A stretch of DNA of 62,633 bases, the filler included, from Hausera hauseri (Eukaryota): assembly GCA_046269625.1 (NCBI GenBank). It is 9 parts of 9 records of this genome, joined end to end, with 100 filler letters (N's around TTAATTAATTAA, not from the genome) between each part and the next. Parts side by side here need not be neighbours in the genome. Positions count along the whole stretch, not along the records: positions 4,334 to 12,384 come from JBJURY010803199.1; 8 more parts are not named here. The stretch is one strand, 5' to 3'. Numbering within the stretch: position 1 is the stretch's first letter; every line of letters begins with the position of its first letter. Under the pieces are notes generated by a model. It had not been told where the DNA came from and did not search any database. It was given only the letters and a program-made list of their open reading frames with translations. The translations under genes and the position numbers were made by a program. This document shows positions 1 through 58,706 of this stretch, one piece after another.

Positions 1-203
1 TAATTTATTTTCTATAACCCAATTTAAGCCCCATTTCCTTGTTATAAAACAGAAGACAAAAACTAGTGTACAAATACGTTATTAATCATATATAACAAAA
101 AATGTACAGCAGATGAATGTAAAATAAAGATCACAAATGTGAATGATCTAACTAGACTGAATTGCATGTTTGCATTGAACTGTTTGTGAACACTAAACGT
201 GTG

Positions 204-3200
204 TTATCTCAAACGCCAATGTCTGTACGCCCAACTCTTATTTCACCCCACCCACTTTCACCTATCATCATTGCATGATAAAGTGACTTTTGTATTGGTC
301 ACCGTATACAGCTGGTGTTCAATTCATCGGATGATCGTTTGAAATGCAAAAGCTTTTGATTGTCCTTCTTCATAGATACGGCGATAATCACCGTGATTTA
401 TTTCCGTCTGGGCCAACTGAACTCCTTTGGCGCGCATTTTCGGTCCACCGTCAGTTGAAAGGCTATAACAATTTGGCCGTAAAAATATCTATTCCCGGTA
501 CTGAACCCGACCTTTACTTTCATCCTTGAAGCAGCCGATTTTGTTTGTGATGGCATTGCTGTACAATGGATGACTCTTTGGGTAATTAGACGTGTCCAGT
601 ACTCCATATGCCAACATTTGCTGCCGTAGTTCTTCGCAATTGACGTTTTCCAGTTCCAAAAAAAACTATCTATCACCGGCAATTATATTGATCCTGCCGC
701 CGCCGCCACCGAACATTTTCCAGTAACGTGCCAAATCGCGATACTGCAGCTCATACATCCACAACTTGCTCAGATCCAATACCACTTGTCCTATATAACT
801 TGGTCTGTCCAGTACGACTTCTTCCCTGTTTAAAAGCACGGCAACCAATCCATCGTCAATGTGCATTGATCGTCTGAACTGCGCCTTGCTCGTGTACGTG
901 ACCAACCGCTTTTCGGTATTGCATAGCGTACATTGAGTCGCCTTTTCAGATTCTCTACAGTTTTTCCGTAGAGCGAATTGTTTTTCAGTTTGTAATAGTC
1001 TTTTTCAAACTTCGTACAAGTAGCAGCTCGTTTTTCCGAATTCCGACTGTTATACAGCTAAAATATTGGAGTCTGTGTGAATCGGATTGCGCAATACAGC
1101 TGTGTGACGCGTACACCCAACTGCATGTCAAACTGCAGCAGACGCCAATGAACCACGTAATTCGATTTGGGTTCATGTGTCATGAGCAGTTTCTTCACTT
1201 TTGAGCCGCCAGGTGGACATTGGCTAATTGGTGCGACCGGCAGTTCATCCAGAAAGTCATGCAGCTCATCCGGTACCACGAGATCAACTTCCATTAGGTA
1301 ACCGACTGAGCTACTTTCTGTCGTGTTTGCTGCTGGCAGACTGTCCAGCAATGTATCCAGTTCTTGTTTGTCCATTATCCATTCAAATGAACCGTACGGG
1401 AAGTGTTGCGAAAGCGCCCAGCCGTACAGGTTATTAATATCGATATACAACATTGACGCTGTATCATCGTCATCACTAGTTACGTAATGCTTGTTGACAA
1501 ATATCATGCCGCCACGAACGCCAACGTCAAACAGTCGCTACATTTCCGGGTTTTGTAGCAGCGAAACGTCCCAATCCAGTGACATTAGTGCCGATGCCCA
1601 ACTCATTCCCGGTATTGAGTAAAAGTTGAGCAGTTCCAACCTATCTTCCTCCAACGCATTAGCCGGAAATGTCTGAAACACATCGGCTAATAAGTACACA
1701 TCGAGCTTTAGATACTGAAGCATGTAGTTTAACATGTTTCTACAACCGAGCTCTGTCTAAGATTCCTGTGCTCTCTGATATTCATCTTCTGTGATACCTG
1801 TCCATCGCGACGGTAATTCCTCTGTTGTCCGAAGTCGCTCATATAACACGGCAAAGTCATATGGGAATATGCCTTTGCTGCGTGCAGTATGCGCAGGGAA
1901 CTGCGTCAGTATTAGCGGCACATTCGACAAGGCATTTACGAGCTTTGCTAGTGACTCATTGAGAAACTGCAATGAGTCAAGAAACCGTACCTGAAACCGG
2001 TTTATACGTGCCGATAGGGACAGGTACTTCTCCATTGTTGTTGGGATTATAGATAGCTCCCAGTGCGGAAATCCGTTTACGGCCCATTTCAGAATATGGT
2101 GACAGTCATAACCCCTGAAGTTATGAAAACTCACCGGTAGGAATGGCCGAACACATCTTTCCAAATTGCATGCGTTGCATGCTGCTTTCAAGTATCGGCC
2201 GGTAAAATGGTCGTGATACGGTACCAGCAGTTTCGGTAATATTTTGTGGTGGCACAGGTAACATTCATTGGTGGCTGCAAACGTCAGGCGTTCATCTTCA
2301 TCTGTCCAAATCAGGGGTTTTGTGCTGTTATTGCGATACCACGGTGCGATTTCCGATTCAACTGTTTCCAAATGATGCAAAAAATCGCCCACACAGTTTT
2401 AATCGTGAAACATTTAATAATGCGGTTGACCTGCAGCTTTTATGGGGCCAACCAACATTCTGACGGCAATTGGAACATGTTTTTGATCGTATACGTCGTG
2501 CCGTGGTAGGATTGTCTCAATATCAGCATGTGTCACATATGCTGGACTGTCCGTTTTTAGAAAAGTCACTAACTCGCAACTCCTTTTGACTGGCATGACG
2601 TACATTGTTGTGCCTGATGCACTCTGTCTGCACAACTTCACAAGTTTTTCTCACGCTGTTTCTTATCTGAAGCCATGCAGACATGTAGGACACCATTTAC
2701 AGCGTATTTGTTATTGGACAAACTGATGGTGAACCATGTTCAACAGTCGGTCCAAATTTGTTACGGACACGTAATAAAATTTTTCTGCCTGTTCCAAAAA
2801 TAACAAATTTATTGTGCATTTATTCGGGTTCCTTCTTCGATAGGTTATATGCACATGTGGATTCTTGTAAATTTCTTCATCTGTCGGTATTTCACCTATT
2901 GTATTGTACCGGAACACATTGATTGAGAGCGTCGGATTACGCCTTTCAGATGTTGGAATGGCTTTTAGTTTCACCGGTATGCAGTTTTCGTCCAATTGCA
3001 ATTCGGAAAAATAATGCCGATACTGACTTGGACGAAATGCACTATGTCTGTCCACTTCGTCATAGTTTAATACCGCTAGAATACTGTAAATAAAACAGTA
3101 ATAATCGTCCGTATTTTTTGCATTCACTATAGCACTAGAGTGCTTTAGAGCTTCAGGTGTCGGTATGAATGAACGTCCGGACAGGTAAATTATGTCACTC

Positions 3201-3523
3201 GACTTTGTTATAATAAAACCAAGAGTAACAATTTTTATTCTTTATCAACCACTGCCCTTTTCGGTGTAGTTGGCGATTTTTCAATCCAGCTTTTTGTCAA
3301 TGTCGGCAATGAAATTTTTGGAATATAGAGCTGCTCGATGTGACAGGTACCATTGTTTCCTGTCACACTGCAGATTCTCAAATTCTGCAGGTACATAATA
3401 TTGCACTTTGCTGTTGTAGTGATTGAATTTCTCCACTTCGATTTCTAACCGGTTGCGCACATGAGCGGGTACATGCATCACTTGGGTTGCTGATTTCGTC
3501 GCCATATTTACTTTTATGTCCAC
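204..3523 (-). pseudogene. Polinton/adintovirus-type protein-primed DNA polymerase B (pPolB), copy 1, frameshifted
   Basis: Consecutive minus-strand fragments: NTDDYYCFIYSILA (vOTU-like), HADIE (ExoI), HDHFTGRYLKAACNACN (endonuclease VII-like insert), FHNFRGYDCH (ExoII), FLDSLQFL, KGIFPYD, YLKLDVYLLADVF (ExoIII), YIDINNLYGWAL (motif A), KNNSLYGK-like, RPSYIGQVVLDLSKLWMY, C-terminal WAYRHW-stop at 204-206. Confidence 0.92.
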
Positions 3524-4333: not shown

Positions 4334-4782
4334 TGCAACTTATACGTCCTTAAAAATTCATTGAGTCCGTCCGGATCTCCGTCATATGCGGGCAAGTTTA
4401 ACGAGTCAAATGTGAAGATATCCAATTTCTGAGCTACTGTCTGGTTTTCTGACATATTTTCGGCGTCTTTTAGAGTATGTTTTACTACTTTACGAATTCT
4501 AGTTTTCTTATTGGGAACCTTAAATTCAATAGGCTGCTCAACAGCGTCTAGATCAATAGGCTTAGTCTTAGCTAAGTTTGTCTCAGATAGCGTACGTCTA
4601 ATCAGCGTTTCCCCTTCTCTATAGACTCGATTACGTGTTTCACGAAAATTAATGTTCTCCTTACCGTTTAAAATAAGATTTAAATTATTGTTTGACTTTT
4701 GTCTGTCAATATTCGTTCTCACTTCCGAATATGTCCTTAATAATACTGAGGGTTTCTTTACAATCCCAAATTTTAATATCAC
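4334..4782 (-). CDS. gag: Gypsy gag N-terminus (truncated by linker)
   Basis: KLDIFTFDSLNLPAYDGDPDGLNEFLRTY is a capsid start, near-identical to the gag at 58862-59278; lies downstream of LTR and PBS. Confidence 0.8.
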
Positions 4783-4874
4783 AATAACCTACAATAAATT
4801 ACTTGATGTGGTAGCGCTGATCGCTAATATGTCGTTACTTTTCACTAAAAGTCAAGTCTGGCAAGTGCAAACTG

Positions 4875-4892
4875 TCCTGCTAGGGTCGGAAA
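4875..4892 (-). promoter_or_regulatory. Degenerate primer-binding site, tRNA-Arg-like
   Basis: Minus strand TTTCCGACCCTAGCAGGA immediately after the LTR end ...TAACA; resembles the complement of tRNA-Arg 3' ends (TGGCGACC/TCC...CAGGA) with the TGG mutated. Confidence 0.5.
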
Positions 4893-4893
4893 A

Positions 4894-5618
4894 TGTTAGT
4901 AGTTGAAGGTGGGCCCTATCCAACACCCAACTATAACAATAAATGAATTCAAATTTAATAAAGTTGTAAAATCAAGCAGATAAGTTTTAACGTTCTCGTT
5001 AGAATGTTTTCACTTAATTTATCTTGCAGGTACTGCGTGCGATGAATGTATAGTTACAAATTCTAGTCTTAACTATTGAGTTTAACAATAATTTATTTCT
5101 TAGTGTGGTTCTAGTGCCTCTTAAAGAGCGACGGAAAAATATAGAAGAAATTAGCGATACAAAATATATTAGATACAAATAAAATATACCACACACTGAT
5201 TAAGATCACGATAACAATAATTAACGTCTTTGACAATGAACTGTATCTGGCATCTCTTCAGTCTGAATACTGATTTGCAAATTCGAATTTCGATTCTGGA
5301 ACTCTTTCAACTTTGAACTAATTTTCAACTTCTGACTTTTCGCAAATTCTCAAGATTACACTGATCATTCTAAGTGCTACTTTATATAGTAGCCGATTTT
5401 GTATTTACAAAATTTATTTTTCGTTGTTTCGAATTTACGATAAATTTTCATGAATTAATTTCGATTTATTTCATTTACACATCATAAATACTGATTAAAT
5501 TTCGGATTGATTAATCAAAATTTGTAAATATTTACATGATTAATTCCGTTTCAACTTCTTATTTACAATTCGTACTTTTCACCATATTTACAACTTGTCC
5601 TTGTTACACTTTATGACA
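4894..5618 (-). repeat. LTR (~725 bp) of RING-carrying Gypsy element, copy 1
   Basis: TGTCA...TAACA termini on minus strand; PPT directly upstream; TATA-like CTATATAAA at 5381-5389; U5 end (ATTGTTATAGTTGGG...GGGCCC) resembles the LTR at 55421-56156. Confidence 0.8.
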
Positions 5619-5630
5619 TTTCTCCTCCCT
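5619..5630 (-). promoter_or_regulatory. Polypurine tract
   Basis: AGGGAGGAGAAA immediately before LTR TGT; identical tract at 56157-56168. Confidence 0.85.
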
Positions 5631-8016
5631 AAACGGCACTCTCGAATGTGCCCATTGCGTCAGTGGAGGTGCCGAGAACTTGTCGTAAACGTTCCAGTCG
5701 ACCGCGTAAGTCCGCTTCCGAATCAGTTTCATTTGATGGAGATCGCGAGTCAATATTATAGGATGTGGTGGCTCGTTCGGGAAATATTTTTACGATTTTC
5801 TTATTCTCTCCGTTCGAGTAGTATCTCAGCCTTGTAGCTTCGGCTCTGCATACTGTGCAGGTCGTCTTCCCATTTTTCAGGGTCCACGTTTCTAAGCAAT
5901 ATCAGCAGTACTTATGACTGCAATCTTTATTATCTAGGAATACGAATCCTTGGTATAAGTTCGCATCGCAAACGGGGCATTCTTCTTTCTCGGCAACATC
6001 AATATCCACAAGATTCTCATCCACTTCTATTCTTTCGAACACAAGTCATTTTCTGTCTTGATACAAATATCGGTACAATCTCTTTTGATTGGGGTCTATT
6101 GAACTTTCCCTTGGATCGTCAGATACTGCTACTAAAGTCCATTCTACTGTCTCTTGTTTGTCCAGATCAGGTATTCCGGTTCTTTTATATTGTCTCTTTA
6201 ACTGAATTCTGACTTGGGTATCCACAGGAATTGCCAGCCTGTTAGTGCAACTTTTTGATTGAAATATCGGGGCTAGGTATCGGCCTATGGTGTGGTCCTC
6301 TTTGGCATATCCGTTTCCACTCACTATTCTTCTGGGAACAGTCGATACGTAAAATACGGCCTCTTTAATTTTCCCTTTGCTGTAGTATTCTGCCATAACT
6401 AGGATTCTCTTATATTCTTTTATTTAGCCAAATTCTGTAACTATAATCGGCGTATCTTCCTCTCAGTTCTTTCTAAGAACATTAAATTCTGATTTAAGGG
6501 ATTTGGATTTCTTAACTTCCAAAGGTTTTTCACTGTCCTCTCTCTTTTTCTCTCGAGCTGGTATTCCTCTCTGATTGTTCAAGGGCTCCTCTAAAATTGG
6601 GTTATCTATTGTCGATCTCTTTTCCTCTACTTGGCCTTTGCTGGTCTTGCTCCTCTTTTTATGAATATAATCCAGGAAGGAGGTTTTCTTCTTTTGCCAT
6701 TTTGGCTTTTCCGGAGCATCTGGTTTCATTATTGGTTTGTCGTAATTTTTACTAGTTGATGGCTTCTGATGGTTTTGGATGGTTATCTTAATCTGCTTCG
6801 GTCCTTGGGGTTCGATTTGCCGATAACCTGGGTATTCACTAAACCCTTTCCGGAATTTTTGTATCAGCAATTTAGGATTATTATCGGATATCGCATTCTG
6901 TACGGGTTCTCTAGGCTTCCATTCGTGATCCCATCGTAAATGGTCATAAACATTCTTTATAAATTTTGTTCGCTTACTCGCTGTCATTAATTTCGGAAAT
7001 TTAAATCCTTCGCCATTCAGGGCTTCAAGCATCATCTTGAACTGCGATTCCTGGGATGCTGAGGCGGGAAGTAGGCATCCTCGTTTTCGCATTAGGGTAT
7101 TTTCTACTTGACTTACGACAGCTGGGTTTCGGCTTATTTCCCGGATGCCGGCTATATATTCCTGCCTGATTCTTAATCGTTCCAGTGCTTCATGGACTCG
7201 GAATCCGGTTACAACGTATCCATATAAACAATGACTCATATCCTCTTGGATCTCCACGAAATCCTTTCCTTTTTCGAGTTGAGGTTTAGTAATTCCAGTA
7301 ACGTCTGGAAAGGTATCTTTAATTCTAACTCGAGGTGCAATTATTCTGTTAAAAACTTCTTCTCCGTTTGTATTCCTAATTGAGATTTCGATCGAAAAAT
7401 ACCATTCATCATCCTTTTCTCCATAATTTACTGCTAATATCCGGGTATTCCGGCCATCTTGGACTAATCTATAGGATTCCCTATTCTGTTCGATCTCATC
7501 TTCCGAAAGTTTCTGTATGTATACCAGCGGGGGTAACGGCTTCATTAGCTCGGTTCTCCATGTCATTTTTATAATAATCTTGGTTGGAATGTCCGCGATT
7601 CTAAACTCTAGGGCATAGTTCATGAGACTAAAACAGCATAGCTCATAAGTGCTGAATTTCCATTGCTGCCCTTTTTGCGTACTCCAGGATTGTCCTACGA
7701 TCCTGTACTGAATTTCTCCATCAGCGACATGTATGTACAATTGCTGATGTGTTGGCTCATAAGGAATTAGGTCCCTCAAGTGGTACACTCGTACATCCTT
7801 GGAGCTTCTCATAGCGTACAGTCGGACTAATCTGTTCTCTTCCAGACCCGATTTTAGTCCTTTTGGTATTTCACTCTCTTTGGTAAATTCTCGATAATTA
7901 GTATTTTTCAGGTTTTCTCCAATCTGTCGGTACAGGCTCTTAAATAACGGTTTTAGGACCGTAACATGCTGCTGTAAGAAACTGTCAATGTCAAAGCTGG
8001 TTGAGGAATTCTTCAT
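5629..8016 (-). pseudogene. Gypsy accessory ORF (~795 aa): unknown N-term, inactive REX4/ISG20-like DEDDh fold, K/P-rich linker, conserved unknown domain, C3HC4 RING
   Basis: Single frame from ATG 8016 to TAG 5629 with four nonsense codons (6463, 6424, 6046, 5902) and no frameshift; RING CPVC-x15-CSHKYC*YC-x12-CTVC at 5848-5979; exonuclease-like segment about 6937-7443. Confidence 0.8.
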
Positions 8017-8019
8017 TTT

Positions 8020-8044
8020 CTGCTGAAATAGAAATAAAGGTCAA
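8020..8044 (-). promoter_or_regulatory. Putative splice acceptor for the accessory ORF
   Basis: Minus strand TTGAC-CTTTATTTCTATTT-CAG-CAG-AAA-ATG: branch-like motif, pyrimidine tract and tandem CAG just before the ATG. Confidence 0.6.
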
Positions 8045-8117
8045 TCCTAAGACAGATCATCGTTTTGAAACAAAACATTTTATCTGTCTGATGATAGGAT
8101 AACCCGAACTGTAGTTG

Positions 8118-9420
8118 TCAGGTTATGCTATCATAAAGTTCGTCTTGGTGCCCTTTTACCAATTTATCTCCCTTTTGATTTTTACGGCGCTTATTACAAT
8201 TTTTGGAGACTAGAAAGATTATCGCGGTTATTAGGACGAGAACGAAAATTGACACATTGATTATAGCTATCATTGGTAAATTACTCAATTCGGTAGAACT
8301 TTGCGTGGTGAACACATTCAGAGTGCTAATACCTTTGTATGACATCACTTCAATTTTGTTACCAAGTGTTCGTACTGTAAAAGTCTTAGGGTTCTTACCC
8401 TCCGCGGTCATTCTAATTATGTACTCATATTGTGGCCGTAACGACTTGCATACTGCTCCCAAACTATTTCTTCTTAGAATCACAACTTAGTTGGTGTGCA
8501 CAGTACGACACTCAATTTTAACGTCTTCATCTAACGTCTTTTCAGCGTAGAATAGAATTCTATCGTTCTTCGTTAGGATTTTGATCGGTATATTTTTTAG
8601 TATTTTGTCCGTAGTGATAATCGTAATACTGCGAGTTGTACTCGGCGTCGTGGATGGTTTTCCTGTAGTGGTCGGAAGTGGGAGTTCCCATATTCCGTTC
8701 TTTGGGCGATATCCTCTTAGGAAAATACTTCGTTCACCTGGATAAGTATCATACAGATCGAAATGTAGTCGGTACCTTTGCCCTAGCTGTATTACACAGC
8801 ATACGGTGGGACGTCGCTTTGCCAATGAACAATGCTCTGGTCTAGGAATAGAAGCGTTTAATGGTGTGAACTGGACAGAAATTTCTTTTTCTTCAGGTAC
8901 TCCAAATTTGGTCTCGATCCGAATGCATTGGTTTATCAAGTCCTTGTGGATTCCGACAATGTTGTCATCTAAGAGTCTGTTAATCGGATCGGTGCTTCGA
9001 ATGATTTTGTCCATTTTTGCTTGATTGGCGTCCTTTTGTTGTGGCATTCGTATTGTGAGCTCCGAAGCTATGTCGGCCTGAGCCCCAAATTTATAGGAAT
9101 AAAACAGCTGAAAGCTATATCTATAGACTTTTGCGAAATCCAAATTACAGTATCTCCTGTGATGTCCGCATGGAAAATCGCATACTCTTATATCATCACC
9201 AGTAGTTATAAATGTAATCTAAAATCCTATGTGTCTCTGGATAGGTTCGTCTGTTTCAAACCATGCACATGGTTTTCCCCAATCAATATCCCGTACCCTA
9301 ACTGTCTGTAAATTTTGGATATCCTTTTGTTTTCCGGTTTTAGCGCTCTTTTTCACCGTAGGTATATATATGAAGCGATTAACAATAGCGCTAGGACAAT
9401 TTGTACATAAGATATTGGCC
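8118..9420 (-). pseudogene. env-like type I membrane protein of the Gypsy element (degraded)
   Basis: Signal-peptide-like YVQIVLALLLIASYIY in frame after integrase; ORFs 9143-8487 and 8483-8118 share a frame across one stop; Thr-rich stretch, TM helix IAIINVSIFVLVLITAIIFLV, basic stop-transfer KNCNKRRK, tail ELYDSIT. Confidence 0.65.
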
Positions 9421-9496
9421 TAGTCACTACTGATGATGCCTTCTTTTCCTTGTTTATTTTGCTTGAACGTAGATTGTAGCGTTTGTCTGGTCTTAT

Positions 9497-12384
9497 CTAT
9501 GTTTTGACTACCCTTTGAATTGAGGTGACCTCTTCTTTACCATTTTTGTTTATGTAAACCGTAGTTGGTGTAGTTTTTGTAACTTCATAAGGTACCCTAC
9601 CTGTCCTGGTAAGCTTAAGAGATGTGCCTTTCTTTGCCACTGGGTAGTAAACGTAAACCCAATTTCCAAGTTCCAAGTCATTCGGTTTAGCCTTTTTGTC
9701 GTATTGTCCTTTAAATTGTTCTTGGTATTCTTTAGATAATTCCTTGGCTATTTCCCAGCATTTTAGCAATCTCGATTGTAGTACTTCAACGAAATTTTGT
9801 TCTAAATCTTCCGTCCGAGTTGTATATGGAATCAATCCTAGGTCTGTGGGCAATACAGCTTCCCTACCGTACATCATGAAAAATGCAGTAAATCCCGTCG
9901 CAGGATGCGGAGTAGTATTTTTAGCGAACTGCGTTCCTTCCAGGAACTCATCCCAATCTTTTTGGTCTTTCGCGAATACTGTTGATAAAATCCGTACAAC
10001 AGTTGCGTTCATTCGTTCCACCATTCCGTTACATTGAGGGTGATAAGCTGTGGTAGTTAATCGTTCAATCTCAAAAGTCTTGGAAATTTTCTCGAACAAC
10101 TCGCTCGTAAAGTTTCTTCCCCGATCTGTCAATATTTGTTCTGGTGGCCCGTATCTGCAAATGATTTTCCGTACTACTGCTTCTGCTAAGGTCTCAACTT
10201 TTTGATCAATTAATGCTATAAGTTCAACGAAGTGAGTCAGTCGATCAACACAAGTCAGAATATATCTATTATTCTTGTGAGCCGTAGGCAACGGTCCTAC
10301 AATATCCATAGACATTGCTTGCATTGGTCTATCTGGTACGTCGATAGGCTTACGTTCGGCAACGTAATTCTTTACTTTCTTTTGTCTGGTTGCGCATACT
10401 TCCAAGCGTTCACCCAATTCTTTACTTCAATGTAGACGCTCGGCCAATAGTATTTGTTTAATATTCTTTCCAATATCTTTTTCCATGACATGTGCCGGGC
10501 TAAGTATGAATCATGTTCAGCCAGGAGCACTTCTGCTCTTAATCCTTTTGGTATGACGACTAGTTTTCGCCCCTTTCGTTCGTAATACAATACACTCTCT
10601 TGATTGGAATCTCCAGCGACACAATATTTGTGTCCATATCTTCGCAAGTGCTTCCGCAGTTGATGTCCTTTTGGTATCTTGTCCTCATTAATGAATTCCA
10701 TAATTTGTCTTATAACATTGTCCCTTTTCTGTTCAATTGTAATCTTTAAAGCCTTGTCAAGGCTGAGAATCCGTTGTCTCTCTACCAAATTTTTAAGGTG
10801 TGTCTTTCTCATTACTGTCACTGCACTAGTTTTGGTTCTAAGCCTAGATAATGCGTCGGCATCGAAATGTTTCCTTCCAGGTTTGTATTGAAATTCGATG
10901 TTGTATCGTGAGATCTCTTCGATCCACCTATTAAGTCTACAAGTTGGGTTGTTCGCTCTACCTGTCAGAGTCGTAACTGCTTTATGATCCGTGACGATTA
11001 TAATCTTTTGTCCGTAGACGTATACATTAAAATGTCGCAAGGCTTCTTTTACCGTCAATGTTTCCAACTCTGTTACGGAGTAGTTCTTCTCAGTTTTCTT
11101 TAGTGAACGTCCTCCATATGCATTTGGATCTTCTAGTTTTTCGTCTTCTCGTTTTTGTGCTAATTCATATCAAATACCTTCCTTACTGGCGTCTGTTTTA
11201 ATTATGAACGGTAGATTGAAGTCGGGATATCTTAAAACAGGTTCACTAGTTAGAATTTTCTTTATCTCATCAAAAGCCTTTTGTTCTACATCGGTCCATT
11301 TCCATTTGATTCCCTTCTTCAACAGACGATACATTTGCGCATTTATTTTAGCGTTTTTTGGCACATAAGTGGCATAATATCCACACAATCCCAACCAATG
11401 TCTTAGTTCTTTTTGATTCTTGGGTTCTATGCAGTCCGAGATTTTACTCAATAATGACTTATCCGGTTTCGATCCTCCTTCTCCTACTGTATGTCCAAGG
11501 TATGATACGGCGTTCTGGGCCCATTTACACTTCTTGGGGTTCAGTTTCAGTCCAGCCTGTTCTAGCCTCATGAGTGTATCTTCGATATCCCTTAAATAAT
11601 CCTCTTCTGTTTTCGAGACAATCATAACATCGTCCAAATAGGCGAACGCATATTCCAGTCCTATCAGCATTTGGTTCATCATACGGGTAAAGATGGCTGG
11701 TCCGGTAGTTATCCCAAATGGCATAACATTAAATTCGTATATACCGTCATGTGTCTTAAATGCCGTCTTGTAACGATCTTCTTTTTCTATTTCTACCTGT
11801 CAATATCCAGATTGCAAATCGAGCGTAGTAAACCATTTCGCTCCCGAAAGTCTGTCTAGAGCTTCCTTTACCGACGGTAATGGGAAAGAGACTTTCATCA
11901 TCAGTGTGTTTAACGCTCGGTAATCGATACAAAATCGGTGATTACTGGTACCTTTCTTCTTAACCATTAGTATCGGTGAATACCAAGATCGATAGCTTGG
12001 TGTAATTATGTCAGCCTTTAACATTCGTTCAGCTTCCTTAGTTATCTCTGGTCTTAGTGAATGTGTAGGAGGACACCATTTTGGCATCTTTTGGTCTTCC
12101 AAGTCTATTTCATCGTTAGATCCTGGCTTTTTCTTGAGTGGAATTGTCAGTCTTAAGGTTTTCGCTCGACCAATGTCCTCTTCATCCTTCGCGATAATTG
12201 AGCTGTAGCGACAAAGTTATTCGTAGAATTGACAATATGCTTCTGGCGAAAATTTTATTTCAACGTGGGATGGAAATTCGGCGCCCTTGTACGGTTTTTC
12301 TTCAATGGTAATTGACGATACTCTATACGTATGTCCCAAAGTGGTATTGGCATAAAGTTTGATCGGAGTGGATGCGTTATTCGC
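9497..12384 (-). pseudogene. pol: Gypsy pol (RT-RNase H-integrase), frameshifted, 5' part cut by linker
   Basis: RFCIDYRALN, TTLDLQSGY, MPFGI, AYLDD, IKTDAS, VTDHKA, HDSYLARH, SMDIVGPLP, ILTDRGRNF, YHPQCNGMVER; Ty3/Gypsy order. Confidence 0.97.
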
Positions 12385-13057
12385 NNNNNNNNNNNNNNNN
12401 NNNNNNNNNNNNNNNNNNNNNNNNNNNNTTAATTAATTAANNNNNNNNNNNNNNNNNNNNNNNNNNNNNNNNNNNNNNNNNNNNGTTTTATGTATTAGAA
12501 TAATTTTATGCATAAATGTCGTTTTAAGTAATATTTTGTAAAATATATATTTCCCGCCGATTGGATACCATGTTGATATTTTAGTGAGTCATTTGTCTTG
12601 TGGGGCACGCATATTTCTTTGGTCCAATTTCAAAAGCAAAATATTACAAAATGACATGTATGTATGTATATCATATTTAAACTATATACATCCATAATTA
12701 AGCAAAATTTGTTTTGATTTTTGGTTGCCTGAGACAGAATCCGTGAAATATTTACTGACGCTCCATTCTTCGAGTTTTTCTTCAGCACTTTCTGATTGTA
12801 GATACGAAATACTTGTACATGGATAGTTTTTGTCACTCCAATGATAGTTTCCTTGATAGTGAATCTTGAAAATATTTTAATTTCTAAATTTAAAATTTCT
12901 GTTCATTAAGTGAATCATGACATCTCATATTTCAATCAATTTGGCCTGTCGCAAACATCCTAAATACTAAATTGAATTGTTAAAGATATCAAACATTTTA
13001 TGATGTACATTCCAGTCCATTCAATAACATAATAGACAGAATTATCGCCTCACTCAC

Positions 13058-16000
13058 TTTTGACTTTGCATTCTGCAAAATATCAAGATAAGGCAATCCG
13101 GGTTTAACCATTAAAATATCAGCACCTTCTTGAACATCTCGGTCCTTCATGAAACATTGACAAACTTCGAATTTTTAACAACAAACCATCGCTCTCATTG
13201 CCAGTCCTCGTGCTCCAGGAGGCAGTTGATAACATTTTCTGTCACCAAAACCCGGTGCCGATTGCGCTGCAGATCTGAATGGTCCGTAAAAACTTGACGC
13301 AAATTTGGCCGAATATGACATTAGAGTAACATATCCTTTTAAACCTTCGGACAAAAGTGCAGTTTTTATTGCTTTTATTCGTCCATCCGTGCAGTCACTG
13401 GGTGCGATAATGTCACATCCTTAGAGTGGTTAATCTCGTATGAAATGTGGTGAAATTACCCGCTTTAGCATAAGACATAGAAACCTCAACAAGACGTTTA
13501 ACACTTGCTTGGTTGTCAATTCTACCGTTCTTATCAAGTATACCTATACTAATAAAGACATGTCAACAGGAATAATTTTCGAACCACAATGGCCATGACT
13601 AGTGTAGGCACAGAGGCAAACGTCGCATGCCACTCGAAGTTCCGGAAATGCACTTTTCAATAATTTTACTGCAGTAACAACAGGACTATCGGGAGTATCA
13701 GCCGAAGATCCTGTTTCGTCCTGTGCAGCAATAAAATATCACAATTTTGAAATTTGTTTTTGTACAGCAGATCTAATAAAAGTCTCAATCGTCAAATGGG
13801 ATACCTCGCATTTTTCCAGACGTCTCATACGTAACCTTCGTACTAATTTATTAAAAAATTACAGGTTTTATCGTATTTTGGCAATAATAGGATATTTGGC
13901 ATTTGTCTCATATTACCGGCAAAAACACTATATCCAAAAGTACATTCGATTGAATCTCAAAGTTGAAACCATAAGCTCACGCTCTTCTGTAAAACCAAAA
14001 AGTAGTCATACAGATACCGACACGACTTAACTCAAGCCGAGCCGCAGATCTTGATATGTTAATTTTGACACTAAATTAAAACATGGTGAGTTTGTACGTA
14101 TTTTACTTGTATATTTTGAAGGTCAGATGAGATTATATGAGACTATATAATCAACTGCACTCGAGATAGAAATAAAAATGCATATTTTTCGACATTCCTT
14201 TCATTAAAAGAAATTTCATAGAAGTAGATTTCCTCGTAAAATTAAAATTCATCTTATTAAGATTGTATATTACACTTATGCAGCTGTATACCAAAAGTCC
14301 CGTATTTCTACAATCTACATATGCTTTATGACTACTTTATATACATTCATTTATTATTATTATTATTTTATTATTTATTTATTTTATTAATAATCATTTT
14401 ATTTAAATTATTTTAATCAGTCTCAGTAAATATCCGGTGCGCCAACAAAAATTCTACTCTACAGAATCAAGAGAAAACTTTTAGATTACGAAGGTTACGC
14501 AAACTTATTTTTAAAAAACAACTAGCATTTCACCCGAAAAGTCCTCCTTCTCTCTTAATAACTTTTCCAATTCGGGTCCGGAAGCTCCGACAAGTTCTCC
14601 TGATATAGTCCTTCGAGATTTCTGACCAAGCGTCAATGAGGGAGGCTTTGAGGGCTGCATCCTTCTGTAATTTCGCCCAAACCCTGTAGTCAAGAGGGTT
14701 GACATCTAGGGAGTTAGGAGGTCACATGTCTTTAGGCCAGAAGTTTGTAAAATTATCAGCAAATCACCCTAGGGTACGTTTCGATGCATGGGATGGCGCA
14801 CCATCTGGAGTAAAGACAACATTGGCAACTGAACCGTAAGTCTTAATAATCCGAGGCTTAACATGGTCACTTAGGATGTGGATGTAGCTTTCTGTGTTGA
14901 GACGATCACCACCTTTTACAAAGACAAGAGGCAACTGCAAAAGCTATTACACTGCTTGGGTGCTTCGTCCTGAACTGATGTCGGATGTGTTCTGGTACAT
15001 CACTGGGTTCACCATGACAAATAAATATGTCATTTCGGGAATTTGAAGCTTTGTCCACGGTAAAAATTTTCTCATCGGAGAACAAGGTGACTTGATTGCT
15101 GTGTTTTAAAAATGATAAAATTTGTTGACATCTTTGTAGTCTAGATTCTCAGTTTGCTATAGTGAAAAATGAGCGACAAGTTCTAGCTAAAGATCATGCC
15201 CCGAGATCCTCTTTGATGACCCTTCTCATTGTCGTAGCACTCACCTTCATGGTCTTGGCCATCTTTCTTATCGACTGGACAGGATTCCGACTCAAACCAC
15301 TTCCTTCCTTTCGTTGAACTATTCGAGTGCCTCGAAATTTGGCCTTGACACGAAACACAGTCGTTCTGTGAATATTACAGGCTTTTGCTACTTTCTTCAA
15401 CTTCATTCCGGCATCCAGAAAATTCATAATCACCTCATTTGTTGAAGACATTTTTGTAGATAAAGCTTCTTTGTTCGTTTTAGATATGAAATATGACGGT
15501 ACATTTCTTTCAAGTTATTTTAATAACTTGTTGATACAGGAATTAGAATATGATTCAAACGATTTAACAAATCCGCTAATTAGCGAAAAAAAAACTAACA
15601 TCAATGTAACATTTTGTTAGATTAGATGTTCTTAAATTTAGCAACCTTGGAGGACTTTGGTTTAAACTAATTTATGATCCATTAAACTGAAATATGTCAA
15701 TATTGAACTATTCTCGCTTAATTATAATTCCAGACAAGGAAAGGGACTTTACACCGTAAATCCGAGTTTTATATTATGGAAATAACTTATTCATTTTTGC
15801 ACTTGTTCCATTTTGTCAAAATATGCATAAGAATTTTGAACTTTAATAAAAATTTCCTTCTTTCCAAAATTTTCTGCATATATTCCATTTATACTGTCTT
15901 GGATTTTCTGTCGATTTTACGAAAAATTTCCCATTAAAAATGAGAATATCAGATGGGATATTTCCTATATGGATATTTTGCGTTCTTCTATGCACGGTGA

Positions 16001-18896: not shown

Positions 18897-18933
18897 CTCA
18901 GGTACTCAATAGATAGAACTTAATATTGTTAGA

Positions 18934-21900
18934 ATGCAGCAAGATGTCGAAAGTGAAGTACCGGATAAAGGGTCAAAACAATCCCGAGCAGCTAAATTTA
19001 AAGAATTTTTCCAAATTGCAAAGCTACGAGGGTCAGACGACAATGCGTGTTTTGAATATGCAGAAAAACAAATGGAGGCAATAGACGAAAGAGACGATAG
19101 GGCGAGTGAACGGGACGAAAAACAGAAAATTAGAGAGGCAGAAGAAAGGCGAGAAATCAGAGACAAAGAGGCAGCAGAAAAGGCTGCTATAAGGGAGGCA
19201 GCAGAAAAAACGGCTATAAGGGAGGCAGCAGAAAAAGCGGCTGCAAGGGAACACGAACTAAACATGAAAAGATTGGAGGTGGAGACACAAAAGAAACCGG
19301 CAGCGGACCAGCAAATGAGCAGCACCACAGTACCAAGTTCTACATTTATTAAAAAGAAACTCAGAGATTACGAAGACGGAAAAGATGATATGAATGCTTA
19401 TCTAAAGCGTTTTGAAGATAATTGCACGGTACAAGGTGTGCCCCAAACAGAATGGGCTAATCTTCTCACAAACCTCATGCAGGGCAAAGCACTAGTGATA
19501 TGTCAGAAACACGACATGACTAAAGGGGATGCTTACGAGAAGATGAAAGGGGAGCTATTGAATGTCTATGGATATAACGCACAAACCTTTCGGCAGAAAT
19601 TTCAGAATTGCCTAATGTCAAAGAAGCAAGAGCCACAGACATATATTAATGATCTCTGTACATATTTTGACAGCTGGGTCAAGTGTTCAAAAGTACCGAC
19701 GGAGTACAAAGCACTAAGAGATTTCATCCTGATCGACAGAATCATTCACTCCGCTGACAAAGAACTGCAAGCCTTTTTGCATGAACGGGCGCCAAAGACA
19801 TTAGACAGTATATTAGAAATATTGAGAATCTATCAAGAGGCGCACCCCGACAGGCCGATGTCTAAGGCGGATTATGACGACAACACAGATTTAATTTGCC
19901 TAGTTGGATCACATAAACGTATGGGGCAAAGACTAGAAGATGTAGGCAAACGAAGTCCATACGACAGAAGTGAGGCAGAATATGAAGACAGACGAGACAC
20001 TGAAGGTCACAGAGGGGGTGGCAAGTGGGAAAGACAAACACGATGTTTTATATGCAATAGCCAGTATCACATAGCGAGACAATGCCCTGAGAAACAAAAA
20101 GAGCCCAGAGAGGATCATAAACAACTATACTCAAGAAGATGCTTCATATGCAGTAGCCCACACCATTTGGCTAGGTATTGTAAGAGTAGACCAACTGACG
20201 ATTTTGACAACAGGCGCAATGACGATAAGGGGCCGCCGAAGAGGAGAAGTAATAGTGCGGACGCTGTTAACAGACGAACTAGGGACACTATAGGGGCAGT
20301 GTTGTGTAGAGAAGGAACAATAACCTTACATCCAGCCTTTGTTGGAAACACAGCCACACAAGTACTACTGGATTCTGGATGTTCCACAGCAGTGGTAGAT
20401 GAAAGTCTCGTGTTAAAATCCCAGTATAACGGTCGAACCTGTCTGTGTACATCTTTCACAGGTGTAGTAACTGAATTACCCAGAGCAGAAATCTTCGTTG
20501 ATACACCCTTTTACTGTGGGAATTTGGAAGTGGCTGTGTGCAAGGCGTTAGTGGTACCGCTAATACTAGGAAACCTGCCACAGGTGAAGAAAGCCTCAGA
20601 CGAGGAAATCAAACAGTGGATGATAGATCGAGGATTCGCAGGTGGACAGCATCGACAAGAGAACTTGTGTAATGTTGTTGTAACACGAGCCCAAAGCAAA
20701 CGAGACGAGCCAAAATCGATTGCACAAGAACCCACAAACAAACCTGCAAAAGAAATCAGGGGAGAGCATCCCGAGGAAGATAAAACGATGGAGGTCGAAA
20801 GTTCAGAATCTAAACCAACATGCAACGGGAGGCACAGGGCGATTGAAGAGATGAATATGCCCGATATGGCTAAAGACCAAGAACAAGACCCTGCGATCGG
20901 CAAGTGGTATCAGGCAGTGAAGTCACAGATACCCGCACCACGAAAACGGTCAAGGTTGGTCATGAAGAACGGAATCTTATATCGGATGTATGCTAAGGAA
21001 GGGGAAAGTCTAAAGCAGGTGGTGCTGCCGCAGAGATATTGGCGGAGGGTGGTGCAAATAGCTCACGACGACATGTCACACATGGGTGTCCGCAATACGA
21101 AACGGCACATTTTGACGCATTTCTACTTCCCCGGTGTTCATAGATATGTGGCGGAATACATCAGGGGGTGTGAGGTCTGTCAGAAAAGGGGATACAAAGG
21201 AAGAAACATTCAGGCACCAGTGCAAGAAGTGGACATAGTACATGAACCATTCGCTAAAATAGCAATTGATCTGATAGGGCCTATACCAGTAGAGTCGAAC
21301 GACGGTAACAGATACATTCTCACAATGGTGGATGTCTGTACACGGTGGCCAGAAGCCGTGCCCTTGTCTAATATAAGTGCTGAGAATGTAGCAAAGGCAC
21401 TATATACAATCTGCACAAGGATAGGCTTCCCAGAAGTCATATTGTCAGATAGAGGGTCCCAGTTTACGTCAGAACTGTTCCGACAGTTCAGTGGCTTACT
21501 AAAAATTGACCAGGTTTTTACAACACCTTATCACCCCGAGAGCAACGGAATTTGTGAGAGATATAACGGCAAGCTGAAACAAGCTCTGAACAAAATTGTC
21601 AGTGAAAACCCTCAAAACTGGGACAGGTTTATACCATCAGTATTGTTCGCACACCGCGAAATGGTGCATGAATCAACAGGATTTTCACCGTTCCAGATGG
21701 TTTATGGCAGAAGTCCTAGGGGTCCATTAGAGATATACAAGGATGTGATCTGTAAACCTGACATACACATATCTGTCAGAGACGCCTATCAGATGGTCAT
21801 AGATACTAGAGAGAAAATAGTTCAAGCCTGTCAAGCAGCGGGTCACACAGTAAGAACTAAAGGAAAAAAAACACGCACACGGATCAATAAGAACAGAAAG

Positions 21901-23619
21901 TTACGACGATTGAGAAAAGGGGATGAAGTGTTGCTGTTCCTACCAGACAAAAAGAACAAACTGTTTACACAGTGGCAAGGGCCGTACCTAGTGGCAAAGA
22001 AGATCTCGACTGTTAATTATGAAGTTGAGGTCAACGGCAAACGTAAGAAATTCCACATAAATATGCTGAAGAAATTTACTAGACGCCCCAAGCAGACGGT
22101 TCCCGATGATGACATGGATAAAGAAATAATCGGGTGTGTGGTAATACAGGAAAACGACAACACCAGCGAAGGGGTCGATGACATTGCCACGGCGCAGGGA
22201 CGAGAGTGTAAATCCTGGGTGGATGTGGACATATCGAATCTGGAAGGAAAGAGGCAAGACGATGTCAAACAGTTACTGCAGAGATTCAGTAAAATATTCT
22301 CTGACAAACCCGGCAAAACAAAAGCAATGGTCCATGACATAATGTTAGTAGATGACAAACCCATAAGACTAAACCAGTACACGGTCCCAGTACACCTAAG
22401 AGAGAAGCTGAGAACTGAACTAGAAGACTTATTGGAGGCGGGAATAATAGAACACTCTGACTCACCTTATGCCTCACCAATAGTACTGGTCAAGAAAAAG
22501 GATGGAGGTATTAGACTTTGTGTTGACTATCGCCAGCTAAATAAAGTGACAGTTTTCGACCCATTCCCAATGCCAAACCAGGAAGACATTACGGCATTAT
22601 TGGCACAAGCCAAGTTTTTTACGAAACTGGACTTAGCCCGGGGGTATTGGCAAATCCCACTCTCAGACAAGGCTAAACCACTAACAGCTTTCATAACGTC
22701 ACTAGGTCTTTTCCAGTGGAACTGTATGAGCTTCGGTTTAGTGAACGCTCCGGCAACTTTCAACAGAATGATGACAAAATTACTGGCAGGAAGGACAGAT
22801 GCAATAGCTTACTTGGACGATATATGCGTCTTTCATGAAAGTTGGGACAAGCACGTGGCTGGCGTGGCCGACATGTTCCAAATACTGCAGGATAATAACT
22901 TAACAGTACAGCCAACAAAAGTTGAAATGGGACTAACCGAAATCACTTTTTTGGGACATAAAGTCGGTCGTAACACAATCAAACCCATAGATGATAATGT
23001 TGGCAAAATATTGAACATCAAAATACCAACGACGAAGAAACAAGTGCGAAGTGTTATTGGCCTATGCAGTTATTACAGAAAATTTCTCAACGGCTTTGCA
23101 GATATTGTGAGGCCTTTGATAGACCTGGTACAACAAGGCAAGCCAAAGAGGGTCAACTGGACAGCTGAATGCGATAGGGCGTTGACAAGTATTAAGAGAG
23201 CCTTTGAAAGTGAGCCAATTTTACAACTGCCTGACATAACAAGGGAATTCTACGTAGCTACAGATGCATCGGCCACGGCTGTGGGTGCCTGCCTTATGCA
23301 AAAAGACGATAACGGTGTGTTCCACCCGGTGCTTTACATCAGCAGAAAACTGTCGGATGCAGAGGTGAAGCTCTCAACGCTAGAGAGAGAGGCACTCAGT
23401 ATAATCTTTGCAGTAACCAAACTAGCGAGATATTTGATAGGGGCACAGTTCACCCTCTTCACAGACCATGAGCCGTTAGCGTTCATAGACACGAAAAAAC
23501 TGTACAACCACAGAGTGGCAAGATGGGCCCTTATATTGCAGAATTACCAGTTCACAGTCACCCCCATTCCAGGAAAAGACAATGTGATAGCGGACATTCT
23601 ATCGAGGTGCACAACTTAA
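18934..23619 (+). CDS. Intact 1561-aa Gag-Pol polyprotein, Gmr1-like order Gag-PR-INT-RT-RNase H
   Basis: Coiled-coil with (EAAEKAAIR) repeats, capsid, two CCHC knuckles, LLDSGCS protease, integrase (AHDDMSH..CEVC, IDLIGP, LSDRGSQF, HPESNGICER, WQGPY), RT (CVDYRQLN, LDLARGYWQ, YLDD), RNase H (ATDAS, FTDH, IADILSR). Confidence 0.97.
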   Translation: MQQDVESEVPDKGSKQSRAAKFKEFFQIAKLRGSDDNACFEYAEKQMEAIDERDDRASERDEKQKIREAEERREIRDKEAAEKAAIREAAEKTAIREAAEKAAAREHELNMKRLEVETQKKPAADQQMSSTTVPSSTFIKKKLRDYEDGKDDMNAYLKRFEDNCTVQGVPQTEWANLLTNLMQGKALVICQKHDMTKGDAYEKMKGELLNVYGYNAQTFRQKFQNCLMSKKQEPQTYINDLCTYFDSWVKCSKVPTEYKALRDFILIDRIIHSADKELQAFLHERAPKTLDSILEILRIYQEAHPDRPMSKADYDDNTDLICLVGSHKRMGQRLEDVGKRSPYDRSEAEYEDRRDTEGHRGGGKWERQTRCFICNSQYHIARQCPEKQKEPREDHKQLYSRRCFICSSPHHLARYCKSRPTDDFDNRRNDDKGPPKRRSNSADAVNRRTRDTIGAVLCREGTITLHPAFVGNTATQVLLDSGCSTAVVDESLVLKSQYNGRTCLCTSFTGVVTELPRAEIFVDTPFYCGNLEVAVCKALVVPLILGNLPQVKKASDEEIKQWMIDRGFAGGQHRQENLCNVVVTRAQSKRDEPKSIAQEPTNKPAKEIRGEHPEEDKTMEVESSESKPTCNGRHRAIEEMNMPDMAKDQEQDPAIGKWYQAVKSQIPAPRKRSRLVMKNGILYRMYAKEGESLKQVVLPQRYWRRVVQIAHDDMSHMGVRNTKRHILTHFYFPGVHRYVAEYIRGCEVCQKRGYKGRNIQAPVQEVDIVHEPFAKIAIDLIGPIPVESNDGNRYILTMVDVCTRWPEAVPLSNISAENVAKALYTICTRIGFPEVILSDRGSQFTSELFRQFSGLLKIDQVFTTPYHPESNGICERYNGKLKQALNKIVSENPQNWDRFIPSVLFAHREMVHESTGFSPFQMVYGRSPRGPLEIYKDVICKPDIHISVRDAYQMVIDTREKIVQACQAAGHTVRTKGKKTRTRINKNRKLRRLRKGDEVLLFLPDKKNKLFTQWQGPYLVAKKISTVNYEVEVNGKRKKFHINMLKKFTRRPKQTVPDDDMDKEIIGCVVIQENDNTSEGVDDIATAQGRECKSWVDVDISNLEGKRQDDVKQLLQRFSKIFSDKPGKTKAMVHDIMLVDDKPIRLNQYTVPVHLREKLRTELEDLLEAGIIEHSDSPYASPIVLVKKKDGGIRLCVDYRQLNKVTVFDPFPMPNQEDITALLAQAKFFTKLDLARGYWQIPLSDKAKPLTAFITSLGLFQWNCMSFGLVNAPATFNRMMTKLLAGRTDAIAYLDDICVFHESWDKHVAGVADMFQILQDNNLTVQPTKVEMGLTEITFLGHKVGRNTIKPIDDNVGKILNIKIPTTKKQVRSVIGLCSYYRKFLNGFADIVRPLIDLVQQGKPKRVNWTAECDRALTSIKRAFESEPILQLPDITREFYVATDASATAVGACLMQKDDNGVFHPVLYISRKLSDAEVKLSTLEREALSIIFAVTKLARYLIGAQFTLFTDHEPLAFIDTKKLYNHRVARWALILQNYQFTVTPIPGKDNVIADILSRCTT

Positions 23620-24468: not shown

Positions 24469-24800
24469 TGCATCGTATTTCAATCGGGAATGTGTCGTGT
24501 TATGGGTTGTCGCAAACCAATCACAGCTGATAAACTACTACCATTCGTAATTATCATTGACCTAATTCAATGAATAACGGTAACGACTCAGTTAAACTAC
24601 CACGAAGTAATCAATCTGTACAAATTTGCAATGGCTACTGTTGAATTTACGTATGAACCCGAAATGTTTCCTGCACTGAGACTGACATCGTTTCGCCCAC
24701 TTTGTGTCAATGTGTTTATCAGTGGAAAAATTGTACTCGGTATTCGGACAGTGGATTATGAATTGATTGTTAATCAAATTAAAAACCACATGTTAGTGAA
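24469..24800 (+). pseudogene. TATA-binding-protein-like gene in Polinton-like element (5' cut by linker, one in-frame stop)
   Basis: CIVFQSGMCRVMGC (repeat 1 end), IQ*ITVTTQLN..INLYKF, YEPEMFPALRL...VNVFISGKIVLG, compared with TBP YEPELFPGLIY..LLIFVSGKVVLTG. Confidence 0.8.
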
Positions 24801-25219
24801 TCAAAATGTACATTGCACAAGAACAACAAACTATAAATACCATTTGCATGCCCATTCAGACATTACTACCATGGAAGACGACTACAACGACAAAACGATT
24901 CTACTCAATGATGTCACTGATGAAAGTTCATATTTTTTGTGGTTGTTTGGGTACAAAAAGGACAATTCTAATGTCAAAATGCTGGAACCACCTGTCCAAC
25001 ACTTAGAAAAACCGGTTGATTGTCTGCAGGTTGATTGTATGGAAACGAATCAGGAACTTGCTCAGAAATCATCAGAAGCAGCAACAAAACCGACGTTAAA
25101 AAGGCTGAATGCAATGACTGGAATACGTAAACGAAGAAAATCAAAACCGTCGGCGTCGTCACGCCAAGCACAGATATTTTTACGAAACGAATTTTTCGCG
25201 TGTGAAATCCATTTTCTGC

Positions 25220-25459
25220 TCGACGGCGGTGTCATTGATTCAGACTTTCGTGGTGAAATTGAGGTGTTTCTGGAAAATCAATTTTAGGAACCCTGTTTTT
25301 TCGAAATGCAGTACAATTGCACAAATCGCTTTTCGATGTGAAGAGGCGGGATTCAGTATAATGTCACTGGAACAATAGGGGCTGTTTTGTTTTAATGAAA
25401 CATTGAATGAACGCAAAGAATTCGGTTTCGGTGACTTGGACACAACGACTTATGTTTAA
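25220..25459 (+). pseudogene. dUTPase C-terminal fragment
   Basis: GGVIDSDFRGEIEV (motif 3), TIAQIAF (motif 4), ERKEFGFG (motif 5-like), with stops and frameshift. Confidence 0.8.
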
Positions 25460-27483: not shown

Positions 27484-27712
27484 CTTGCCTTTTGTGTTTT
27501 ATGATTAATACATTATTGATTTTACTTTTGTCTTAATTCGTTATTTTTATTAAATACCTTACATAAAAATAATACGTTAAATTAAATAGACAAAACAAAA
27601 TACGTGGAACAAATATACATTATTCACAATATGAAATAACAGCAAGTGTCATAGTTTATCAATTTTACTGGTCTGGCTGTCTTCGGCTGAGCTGTCTGAA
27701 TGTGCATGTGCT

Positions 27713-58704: not shown

Positions 58705-58706
58705 TA

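Follow-up and report, generated by a model that had tools for sequence, protein, structure and literature searches.

A Ty3/gypsy retroelement of Hausera hauseri with a conserved accessory gene that combines a predicted pseudo-exonuclease with a RING finger

Can a retrotransposon own a gene that joins a nuclease-like domain to a RING finger, and if so, what might the gene do for it? This question is raised by a long open reading frame (ORF), here called ORF4, in a Ty3/gypsy element from Hausera hauseri. The window, by which we mean the whole stretch of DNA that was analyzed (62,633 nt), consists of nine contigs with N spacers between them, and the retroelement finding concerns one whole contig, JBJURY010803199.1 (4334-12384). 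On the minus strand of this contig, Ty3/gypsy pol is followed in order by a membrane-protein ORF, ORF4, a polypurine tract (PPT) and a long terminal repeat (LTR). Sequence comparison marks ORF4 as an accessory gene that a Ty3/gypsy lineage has conserved: in two lineages it is located after the membrane ORF and before the 3' LTR, and in a third it has a PPT-encoded tail. We consider it very likely that ORF4 is a selected gene carried by the element. The contig ends inside pol, and therefore contains no 5' LTR or target-site duplication. The parts of this copy (copy A) and of a second one (copy B) are as follows.

10375-12384, minus strand: pol, reverse transcriptase (RT)-RNase H-H2C2 part, ending at the contig edge (12384); frame shift near 10400; 3 stops in 670 codons
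9497-10426, minus strand: pol, integrase core and C-terminus (Pfam rve, E 3e-15); 0 stops in 309 codons
9371-9421, minus strand: signal-peptide-like hydrophobic stretch, in frame with pol and immediately upstream of the membrane ORF (hydropathy 1.8-2.3; putative signal role)
8118-9368, minus strand: membrane ORF in the env position, with a Cys-containing ectodomain, a Ser/Thr-rich spacer, a C-terminal transmembrane segment (~8273-8199, from hydropathy) and a basic tail; 2 stops in 416 codons
8020-8045, minus strand: candidate 3' splice acceptor, 7 nt before the ATG at 8016, made up of a pyrimidine tract followed by AG at 8023 and again at 8020
5629-8016, minus strand: accessory ORF4 (coding 8016 to 5632), 795 codons from frame reading, internal stops at codons 518, 531, 657 and 705
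5619-5630, minus strand: PPT, with the same sequence in copy B
4894-5618, minus strand: LTR of ~725 nt, TG...CA, TATA-like motif at 5386, AATAAA at 5097; 3' end placed by a motif common to copy B; unpaired in the contig
4334-4788, minus strand: 5' part of gag, downstream of the LTR, with 75% DNA identity and 71% amino acid identity to a gag-like ORF at 58730-59278
56150-57972, minus strand: ORF4 of copy B, a diverged lineage; N-terminal and exonuclease-like part frameshifted, C-terminal 410 codons open and including the RING, first Cys lost
55421-56168, minus strand: PPT and LTR of copy B, then unrelated flank (true 3' end), from comparison with copy A

The frame of ORF4 was recounted exactly as the first-pass annotation of this contig had given it, running from 8016 to 5629 with four nonsense codons and with a C3HC4 RING at 5848-5979. 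In 1000 shuffles, the best of the three frames had at least 34 internal stops (mean 46), compared to four in ORF4. Decay was similar throughout copy A, from pol to ORF4 (4 stops in 795 codons). The terminal stop (5631-5629) does overlap the PPT (5630-5619), as annotated. That this stop is the natural end of the gene did not hold up: copy B and an intact relative, P0122, stay open across the PPT and terminate within the first few codons of the LTR, so the stop in copy A is probably a fifth break, and the gene, judged from these sequences, probably ends inside the LTR.

The match of copy B to ORF4 covers residues 442-795 and, split over two frames, residues 111-312, and the order ORF-PPT-LTR is the same in copies A and B, which are on separate contigs. 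There were 24 matches at E≤0.001 in a HMMER scan of 1.84 billion representatives with ORF4. P0122 is an intact relative of 870 amino acids (44% identity, E 6e-188), and P0123 is a partial one (52% identity, E 1.5e-84). P0126, P0133 and P0143 match the N-terminal or exonuclease region, and 19 others match around the RING. None of the 24 was a cellular full-length homologue, and ORF4 has no introns. The family comprises four lineages at 40-53% identity. The C-terminal tail of P0122 corresponds to the short tail encoded by the PPT and the first LTR bases in copy B. Because this tail is PPT-encoded, we infer that P0122 is located in an LTR element. Thus the annotated position of ORF4 inside the element is borne out by the repeated order in copy B and by the tail of P0122. 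Less sensitive searches gave blanks. Two word-index protein searches yielded 0 of 7026 and 0 of 7110 candidates related to ORF4, which reflects low sensitivity rather than absence because P0122 is in the same collection, and locus searches of viral contigs and metagenome contigs recovered no ORF4 relative. P0133 and P0126 are metagenome proteins from contigs of 2.1 and 1.3 kb, and are possibly part of a wider mobile DEDDh gene pool.

The comparison of copies A and B also indicated selection. Over five partly overlapping segments of ORF4, the proportion of synonymous differences (pS) was 0.74-0.91 and that of nonsynonymous differences (pN) was 0.23-0.41, the RING being the most constrained of the segments compared (pN 0.23). 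Because synonymous divergence is saturated, these values yield upper bounds of pN/pS (0.28-0.53) and not dN/dS. Alignments made from DNA only were free to show codon structure or not. In the C-terminal part of ORF4, identity at codon position 2 was 167/215 (0.78) vs 81/215 (0.38) at position 3 (p 4e-17), and in the exonuclease-like part it was 87/130 (0.67) vs 57/130 (0.44; p 3e-4). The LTR, used as a control, had no such asymmetry (133/228 vs 130/224, 0.58 at both positions). ORF4 is under purifying selection as judged from these alignments, with replacement sites kept while synonymous sites are saturated. In that sense the outcome favors the first-pass annotation.

The YAG at 8023, just upstream of the ORF4 start codon, is preceded by 12 pyrimidines in 14 positions, a count that is tied for highest among the 234 YAG sites of the contig's minus strand. 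This candidate acceptor suggests that ORF4 is expressed from a spliced mRNA.

Within ORF4 we distinguished five parts, listed from the N-terminus.

7477-8016, minus strand: N-terminal domain, residues 1-180; 42-56% identity to P0122 per 50 residues; kept in P0122, P0123 and, weakly, P0133
6922-7449, minus strand: DEDDh exonuclease-like domain from profile searches, residues ~190-365 (profile support ~190-300), without the Exo I and Exo II aspartates
6457-6819, minus strand: basic, poorly conserved linker, residues ~400-520, with Lys/Arg clusters (from composition); 18-22% identity to P0122 over 401-500
6001-6414, minus strand: conserved pre-RING domain, residues ~535-672; 52% identity between copies A and B (pN/pS 0.35, an upper bound); 66% identity to P0122 at 601-650
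5848-5979, minus strand: RING-HC (C3HC4) finger from motif and profiles, residues 680-723; 8 of 8 ligands, helix Trp and following Arg; one stop inside

Identity to P0122, calculated per 50 residues, was 38-66% in the N-terminal, pre-RING and RING parts; the exonuclease-like part had 30-46%, and the basic linker 18-22%.

The RING was recovered by profile searches as well as by its motif. In copy A the spacing is C-x2-C-x15-C-x-H-x2-C-x2-C-x12-C-x2-C. All eight ligands are present in copy A and P0122, and seven of eight in copy B. The Pfam match of copy A (E 1.5e-4) is below the curated cut-off, and those of P0122 (zf-C3HC4, E 2.6e-7) and copy B are above it. Protein Data Bank (PDB) matches are RINGs of E3 ubiquitin ligases, for example RNF4 and RNF8. 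A Trp in the helix and an Arg after the last Cys are present in copy A, copy B and P0122; these two residues have a role in E2 activation and are typical of active E3s. We predict that the ORF4 RING is an active E3, and regard this as likely.

The exonuclease-like domain was more difficult to place. Copy A alone matched Pfam RNase_T at E 0.18, under the curated Pfam and NCBIfam cut-offs, and three of its four PDB matches were DEDDh exonucleases. With a profile of copies A and B, the top four of six PDB matches were SDN1 (8.5e-4), PolC exonuclease, ISG20L2 and DnaQ, all of them DEDDh, and with a profile of copy A, P0122 and P0123, DnaQ ranked first of 59 (4.4e-4). Adding P0133 and P0126 to the latter profile gave five DEDDh-type matches out of five (best 1.5e-8), a result that is partly circular because P0126 itself matches Pfam RNase_T; the two smaller profiles are free of this circularity. 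In addition, P0143 from the HMMER scan is a REX4 protein (E 9e-4), and four of the six NCBIfam matches of P0122 are DnaQ/PolC models, far under their cut-offs. Homology to the DnaQ/RNase T/REX4/ISG20 group is thus present, though below curated cut-offs, and on these profiles we think it highly probable that the domain derived from a DEDDh exonuclease.

Its canonical acidic residues are missing, in agreement with the annotation of a pseudo-exonuclease. The Exo I D-x-E is N-x-G/A in all four family sequences in the HMMER register, with no Asp in the alternative register either, and the Exo II Asp is missing in the three family sequences that cover the position. The Exo III region has no reliable alignment, and inspection of copy A and P0122 by eye showed no evident H-x4-D. 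The residues present lead us to predict that the domain is catalytically dead, which we hold to be probable. P0126, the closest exonuclease relative, keeps D-x-E and has a GIRD/E motif in common with the ORF4 family, and P0133 lacks a RING but has the N-terminal and pseudo-nuclease parts. These two proteins suggest, from their sequences, that catalysis was lost stepwise and that the RING half was gained later.

Other parts of ORF4 are less readily classified. The N-terminal domain had no PDB match in the profile search. The pre-RING domain had no useful match in Pfam or atlas searches (the latter with the copy B domain), and among 60 of the 73 matches of a profile spanning all 870 positions, the sole one over the pre-RING domain was chance-level (E 0.69). 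The Lys/Arg clusters of the linker are a possible nuclear localization signal. There was no transmembrane segment in copy A ORF4 by hydropathy. A resemblance of residues 60-90 to an integrase C-terminus, seen by eye, was dropped for want of Pfam or PDB support.

The membrane ORF has one C-terminal hydrophobic segment and 11 Cys. By hydropathy it has a putative signal peptide and a C-terminal anchor, as an errantivirus env does, the N-terminal stretch being in the other frame. There was no env or fusogen family among its three Pfam matches at E≤1, no furin site (R-x-[KR]-R) across the 416 codons, which come from a decayed copy, and no useful PDB match (two at chance level); the atlas was also blank, in sequence searches that may miss remote homology. 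The label 'env-like' in the first-pass annotation, taken in the sense of a known fusogen, is therefore not supported. The ORF is env-like by its position and predicted topology only, and is not assignable to a known fusogen. A fibronectin-III-like appearance by eye was dropped, having no support from Pfam or PDB.

The element as a whole is of Ty3/gypsy (Metaviridae) type. Its pol has the order RT-RNase H-integrase (Pfam RVT_1 E 6e-37, RT_RNaseH 8e-27, Integrase_H2C2 9e-11, rve 3e-15), and the TG of the LTR, at 5618, directly follows the PPT, the 3' end of the LTR being placed by comparison with copy B. Integrase matches had at most 45% identity among the best 120 of 143, and the named ones were mostly from invertebrates. 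These matches, together with a gene in another contig that has introns of ~40 nt, make an invertebrate animal the likely host. In a quick tree of 92 rows, which kept 90 of 120 relatives by alignment length and included no named reference elements, the RT had a long end branch (1.11), a closest identity of 44%, and a position in no supported clade. Two public runs supplied contigs (25,020 and 3,140 at at least 80% likeness, mostly below 95%) that span all 30 bins of the contig, ORF4 included. This coverage fits a large diverged element family; the depths are not interpretable as copy number or as a ranking of genes.

Downstream of the LTR, the contig runs into the start of gag (4788 to 4334), which points to a tandem copy or else to a join made in assembly. 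There was no Pfam gag match for 4334-4788 in the Pfam scan, and the label is based on position and on a zinc-knuckle motif seen by eye near 60040. Between the LTR and gag, at 4893-4875, is a degenerate stretch resembling a primer-binding site, which we take to be similar to tRNA-Arg; a search of the window found no tRNA gene, leaving the primer-binding site unconfirmed. The related gag is in the region at 58378-62633 (plus strand), which has several repeated TGGCATAGTA-like motifs upstream of gag and, after it, the zinc knuckle and then ~2.4 kb of coding sequence that is broken, looks helical and gave no useful match in Pfam. In that lineage the interval between gag and pol may be unusually long, or there may be an extra accessory region.

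What could the product of such a gene do? The proposal we favor, tentatively and with somewhat less than even confidence, is that ORF4 encodes a nucleic-acid-tethered ubiquitin ligase that disarms host silencing or RNA-decay proteins on the RNA or DNA of the element. Every step of this counter-defense mechanism is inferred. A spliced subgenomic mRNA would be made through the acceptor at 8023, and the basic linker would bring the protein into the nucleus. The pseudo-nuclease would hold nucleic acid without cutting it, by analogy to the dead DEDDh domain of PML-1, and the RING would engage an E2 and ubiquitinate proteins brought close. The outcome would be that more element RNA is expressed and exported. 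Complex retroviruses encode factors of the Vif/Vpx type. A broader and more speculative form of the proposal, which we would sooner doubt than accept, is a complex retrovirus-like lineage of invertebrate elements with its own nucleic-acid-guided E3, a selfish mirror of PML, that would destroy factors of the piRNA, silencing or decay machinery located on the RNA or chromatin of the element, beside a membrane protein of neither known gypsy env class.

Several observations weigh against the proposed tethered ligase. The activity, binding, localization, transcript and target ascribed to ORF4 are predictions, and P0122, P0123 and P0133 were analyzed as proteins. A Glu one residue past the canonical Exo I position is conserved in all four family sequences; with this Glu next to Exo I and no reliable alignment of Exo III, the domain may keep some residual catalysis. 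Because P0133 has no RING, the pseudo-nuclease module can exist without the E3. In copy B the first RING Cys is gone, a loss that agrees with decay but still counts as a counter-instance. The N-terminal and pre-RING domains, to which no fold is assigned, may hold the main function. Two AlphaFold models were of poor confidence (pLDDT 38 and 32); for the first, Foldseek gave no match at E≤0.001 and VIA gave generic helical matches (best Z 6.5). Finally, CERV, the best-studied analogue by position, is described as an RNA export factor (PMC10309623).

The last point leads to the alternative of an export adaptor. ORF4 might act as CERV or Rev does, its pseudo-nuclease binding unspliced genomic RNA and escorting it out of the nucleus, with the RING serving oligomerization or self-turnover. 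An element with several downstream ORFs needs to export intron-containing RNA, which makes such a factor reasonable. A purely structural RING is harder to reconcile with the Trp and Arg typical of active E3s and with the strongest constraint in ORF4 (pN 0.23), and the likeness to CERV is one of description, not of sequence comparison; we consider this alternative unlikely, though deserving of some weight. It is improbable that ORF4 is a helper in particle or membrane trafficking, similar to Nef, Vpu or a late domain, in which the RING would ubiquitinate Gag, the membrane protein or host surface proteins for budding or cell-to-cell spread and the pseudo-nuclease would provide a link to the ribonucleoprotein. 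The gene adjoins that for a type I membrane protein and overlaps the PPT and U3 as retroviral nef does. However, ORF4 of copy A has no transmembrane segment, the membrane ORF carries no signature of a known fusogen, and the basic clusters point to the nucleus.

The remaining alternatives concern the nuclease and the origin of the gene. ORF4 could be an active, non-canonical 3'-5' exonuclease that trims ends of element RNA, primer or cDNA, as proposed for the DEDDy ORF3 of rotifer elements, with a regulatory RING. The conserved Glu adjoining Exo I would suit this, as would the D-x-E and shared GIRD/E motif of P0126 and the catalytic residues retained in rotifer elements (PMC5408684). Against these stand the Asn in place of the first Exo I Asp in four of four sequences (with no Asp in the alternative register) and the missing Exo II Asp in three of three, and we rate an active nuclease as quite improbable. 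A host gene captured as neutral cargo, or an assembly chimera, might be suspected from the fragmented assembly, the LTR joined to the start of gag and the lack of any public-run contig spanning the whole contig. Such an origin is scarcely credible and largely refuted by the codon-position asymmetry despite saturated divergence, the ORF-PPT-LTR junction repeated in an independent contig, the intact P0122 with its PPT-encoded tail, the absence of introns, and the absence of a cellular full-length homologue among the 24 matches.

The window contains other mobile and viral-like sequences. An intact gypsy polyprotein of 1568 codons at 18913-23619 (plus strand), unrelated to the ORF4 element, has a SCAN domain and an integrase ahead of the RT, an order that we take to be Gmr1-like. 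Two diverged, broken DNA polymerase B genes of the protein-primed type, at 199-3241 and 27708-30317 (minus strand), have 72-84% DNA identity (Pfam DNA_pol_B_2, E 5e-8) and suggest Polinton/Maverick-like elements. By eye, a 388-codon ORF at 30992-32158 (minus strand) is of Polinton/adintovirus capsid type, with no Pfam match. An ORF at 24574-25287 (plus strand) combines a TBP domain (E 6e-5) with a tail weakly resembling dUTPase (E 0.04), and is possibly of viral or Polinton origin. There is also a fragment at ~14530-15000 that is presumably a Tc1/mariner-like transposase; a host gene at ~13050-13950 (minus strand), read by eye and taken to be porphobilinogen synthase (ALAD), with introns of ~40 nt; and an intronless ORF at 52286-52993 (plus strand), M20 amidohydrolase-like by eye and with no Pfam match at E≤0.05. 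Tandem repeats occur at 33153-33949, 36692-37794 and 39361-39836, with periods of ~590 and ~270 nt.

Accessory genes in gypsy elements are known, and the premise of the first-pass annotation that Metaviridae carry gag, pol and sometimes env is too narrow: accessory ORFs with DEDD exonuclease and ubiquitin-pathway domains have been published (PMC5408684, PMC6431247, PMC10309623). In bdelloid rotifers, Juno and Vesta LTR retrotransposons and Athena/Terminon elements encode a DEDDy exonuclease, ORF3, with intact catalytic residues (PMC5408684). Both this gene and ORF4 are DEDD-superfamily exonuclease genes downstream of pol in gypsy-type elements. Rotifer ORF3 is RNase D-like and replaces env, and 'RING' has 0 occurrences in the text of that paper (PMC5408684). 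In contrast, ORF4 is of the DnaQ/REX4/ISG20 DEDDh type, as were all five PDB matches of the profile that included P0126; the aspartates are missing from it, it carries a fused RING, and a separate membrane ORF precedes it.

In C. elegans, the region of Cer1 between pol and the LTR codes for CERV, a spliced export factor (PMC10309623). Unlike ORF4, CERV is described as containing H, M and G-like domains as well as a loop of C4 type; no RING is described in the text consulted and 'exonuclease' has 0 occurrences there (PMC10309623), the two proteins being compared by description. Burro/GYPSM1, the giant gypsy elements of planarians, resemble the ORF4 element in carrying ubiquitination-linked domains, namely AIR1 (with a RING Zn-finger), MATH, BIR and a SUMO-like domain (PMC6431247). 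They differ in that these domains are in a 4,900-amino-acid polyprotein before the protease, env is between gag and pol, and an exonuclease-RING fusion is not described in the text consulted (PMC6431247). Errantiviruses, the env-carrying Ty3/gypsy elements, also have pol followed by a membrane-protein ORF, their env being F-type or gB-type (PMC13524379). By Pfam the membrane ORF of our contig matches neither type, and it is also short and without a furin motif. The main text of that survey contains the terms 'RING', 'exonuclease' and 'accessory' 0 times (PMC13524379). Plant elements carry additional ORFs (PMC7264820), and a term search of a second paper on plant elements (PMC11963269) gave 0 occurrences in the text searched. 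Publications linking retrotransposons to RING, E3 or pseudo-exonuclease, judged in part by title and the start of the abstract, included PML and no such retroelement case. We could not find the pseudo-DEDDh and RING architecture in print, in agreement with the annotators' impression that it was unfamiliar, in a search to which Repbase, GyDB, Dfam and supplements were external.

The closest parallel in architecture is a host protein. PML-1 (TRIM19) has a RING and a DEDDh domain that is dead and binds nucleic acid in amniotes, and it acts at the interface between host and retroelements (PMC13659232, PMC10123124). PML-1 and ORF4 both combine RING and pseudo-DEDDh modules (PMC13659232). Unlike ORF4, PML-1 is a host restriction factor with its RING-B-box-coiled coil first, that is, in reverse order, a nuclease domain of the TREX1/Exu-like branch and a SAM-like part (PMC13659232, PMC10123124). 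The RING of ORF4 is C-terminal, and there was no B-box Pfam match. Because no PML or TREX1 chain was among the PDB matches listed, the likeness is most likely convergent. There are few candidates so far for dedicated anti-silencing proteins encoded by animal retrotransposons, and ORF4 is one. Since a natural intact protein exists (P0122), E3 activity, nucleic-acid binding and interactors are directly testable on isolated domains. If our proposal of a tethered ligase is true, the pairing of a RING with a pseudo-DEDDh domain arose on both sides of the conflict between hosts and retroelements, as PML in hosts and as ORF4 in the elements.

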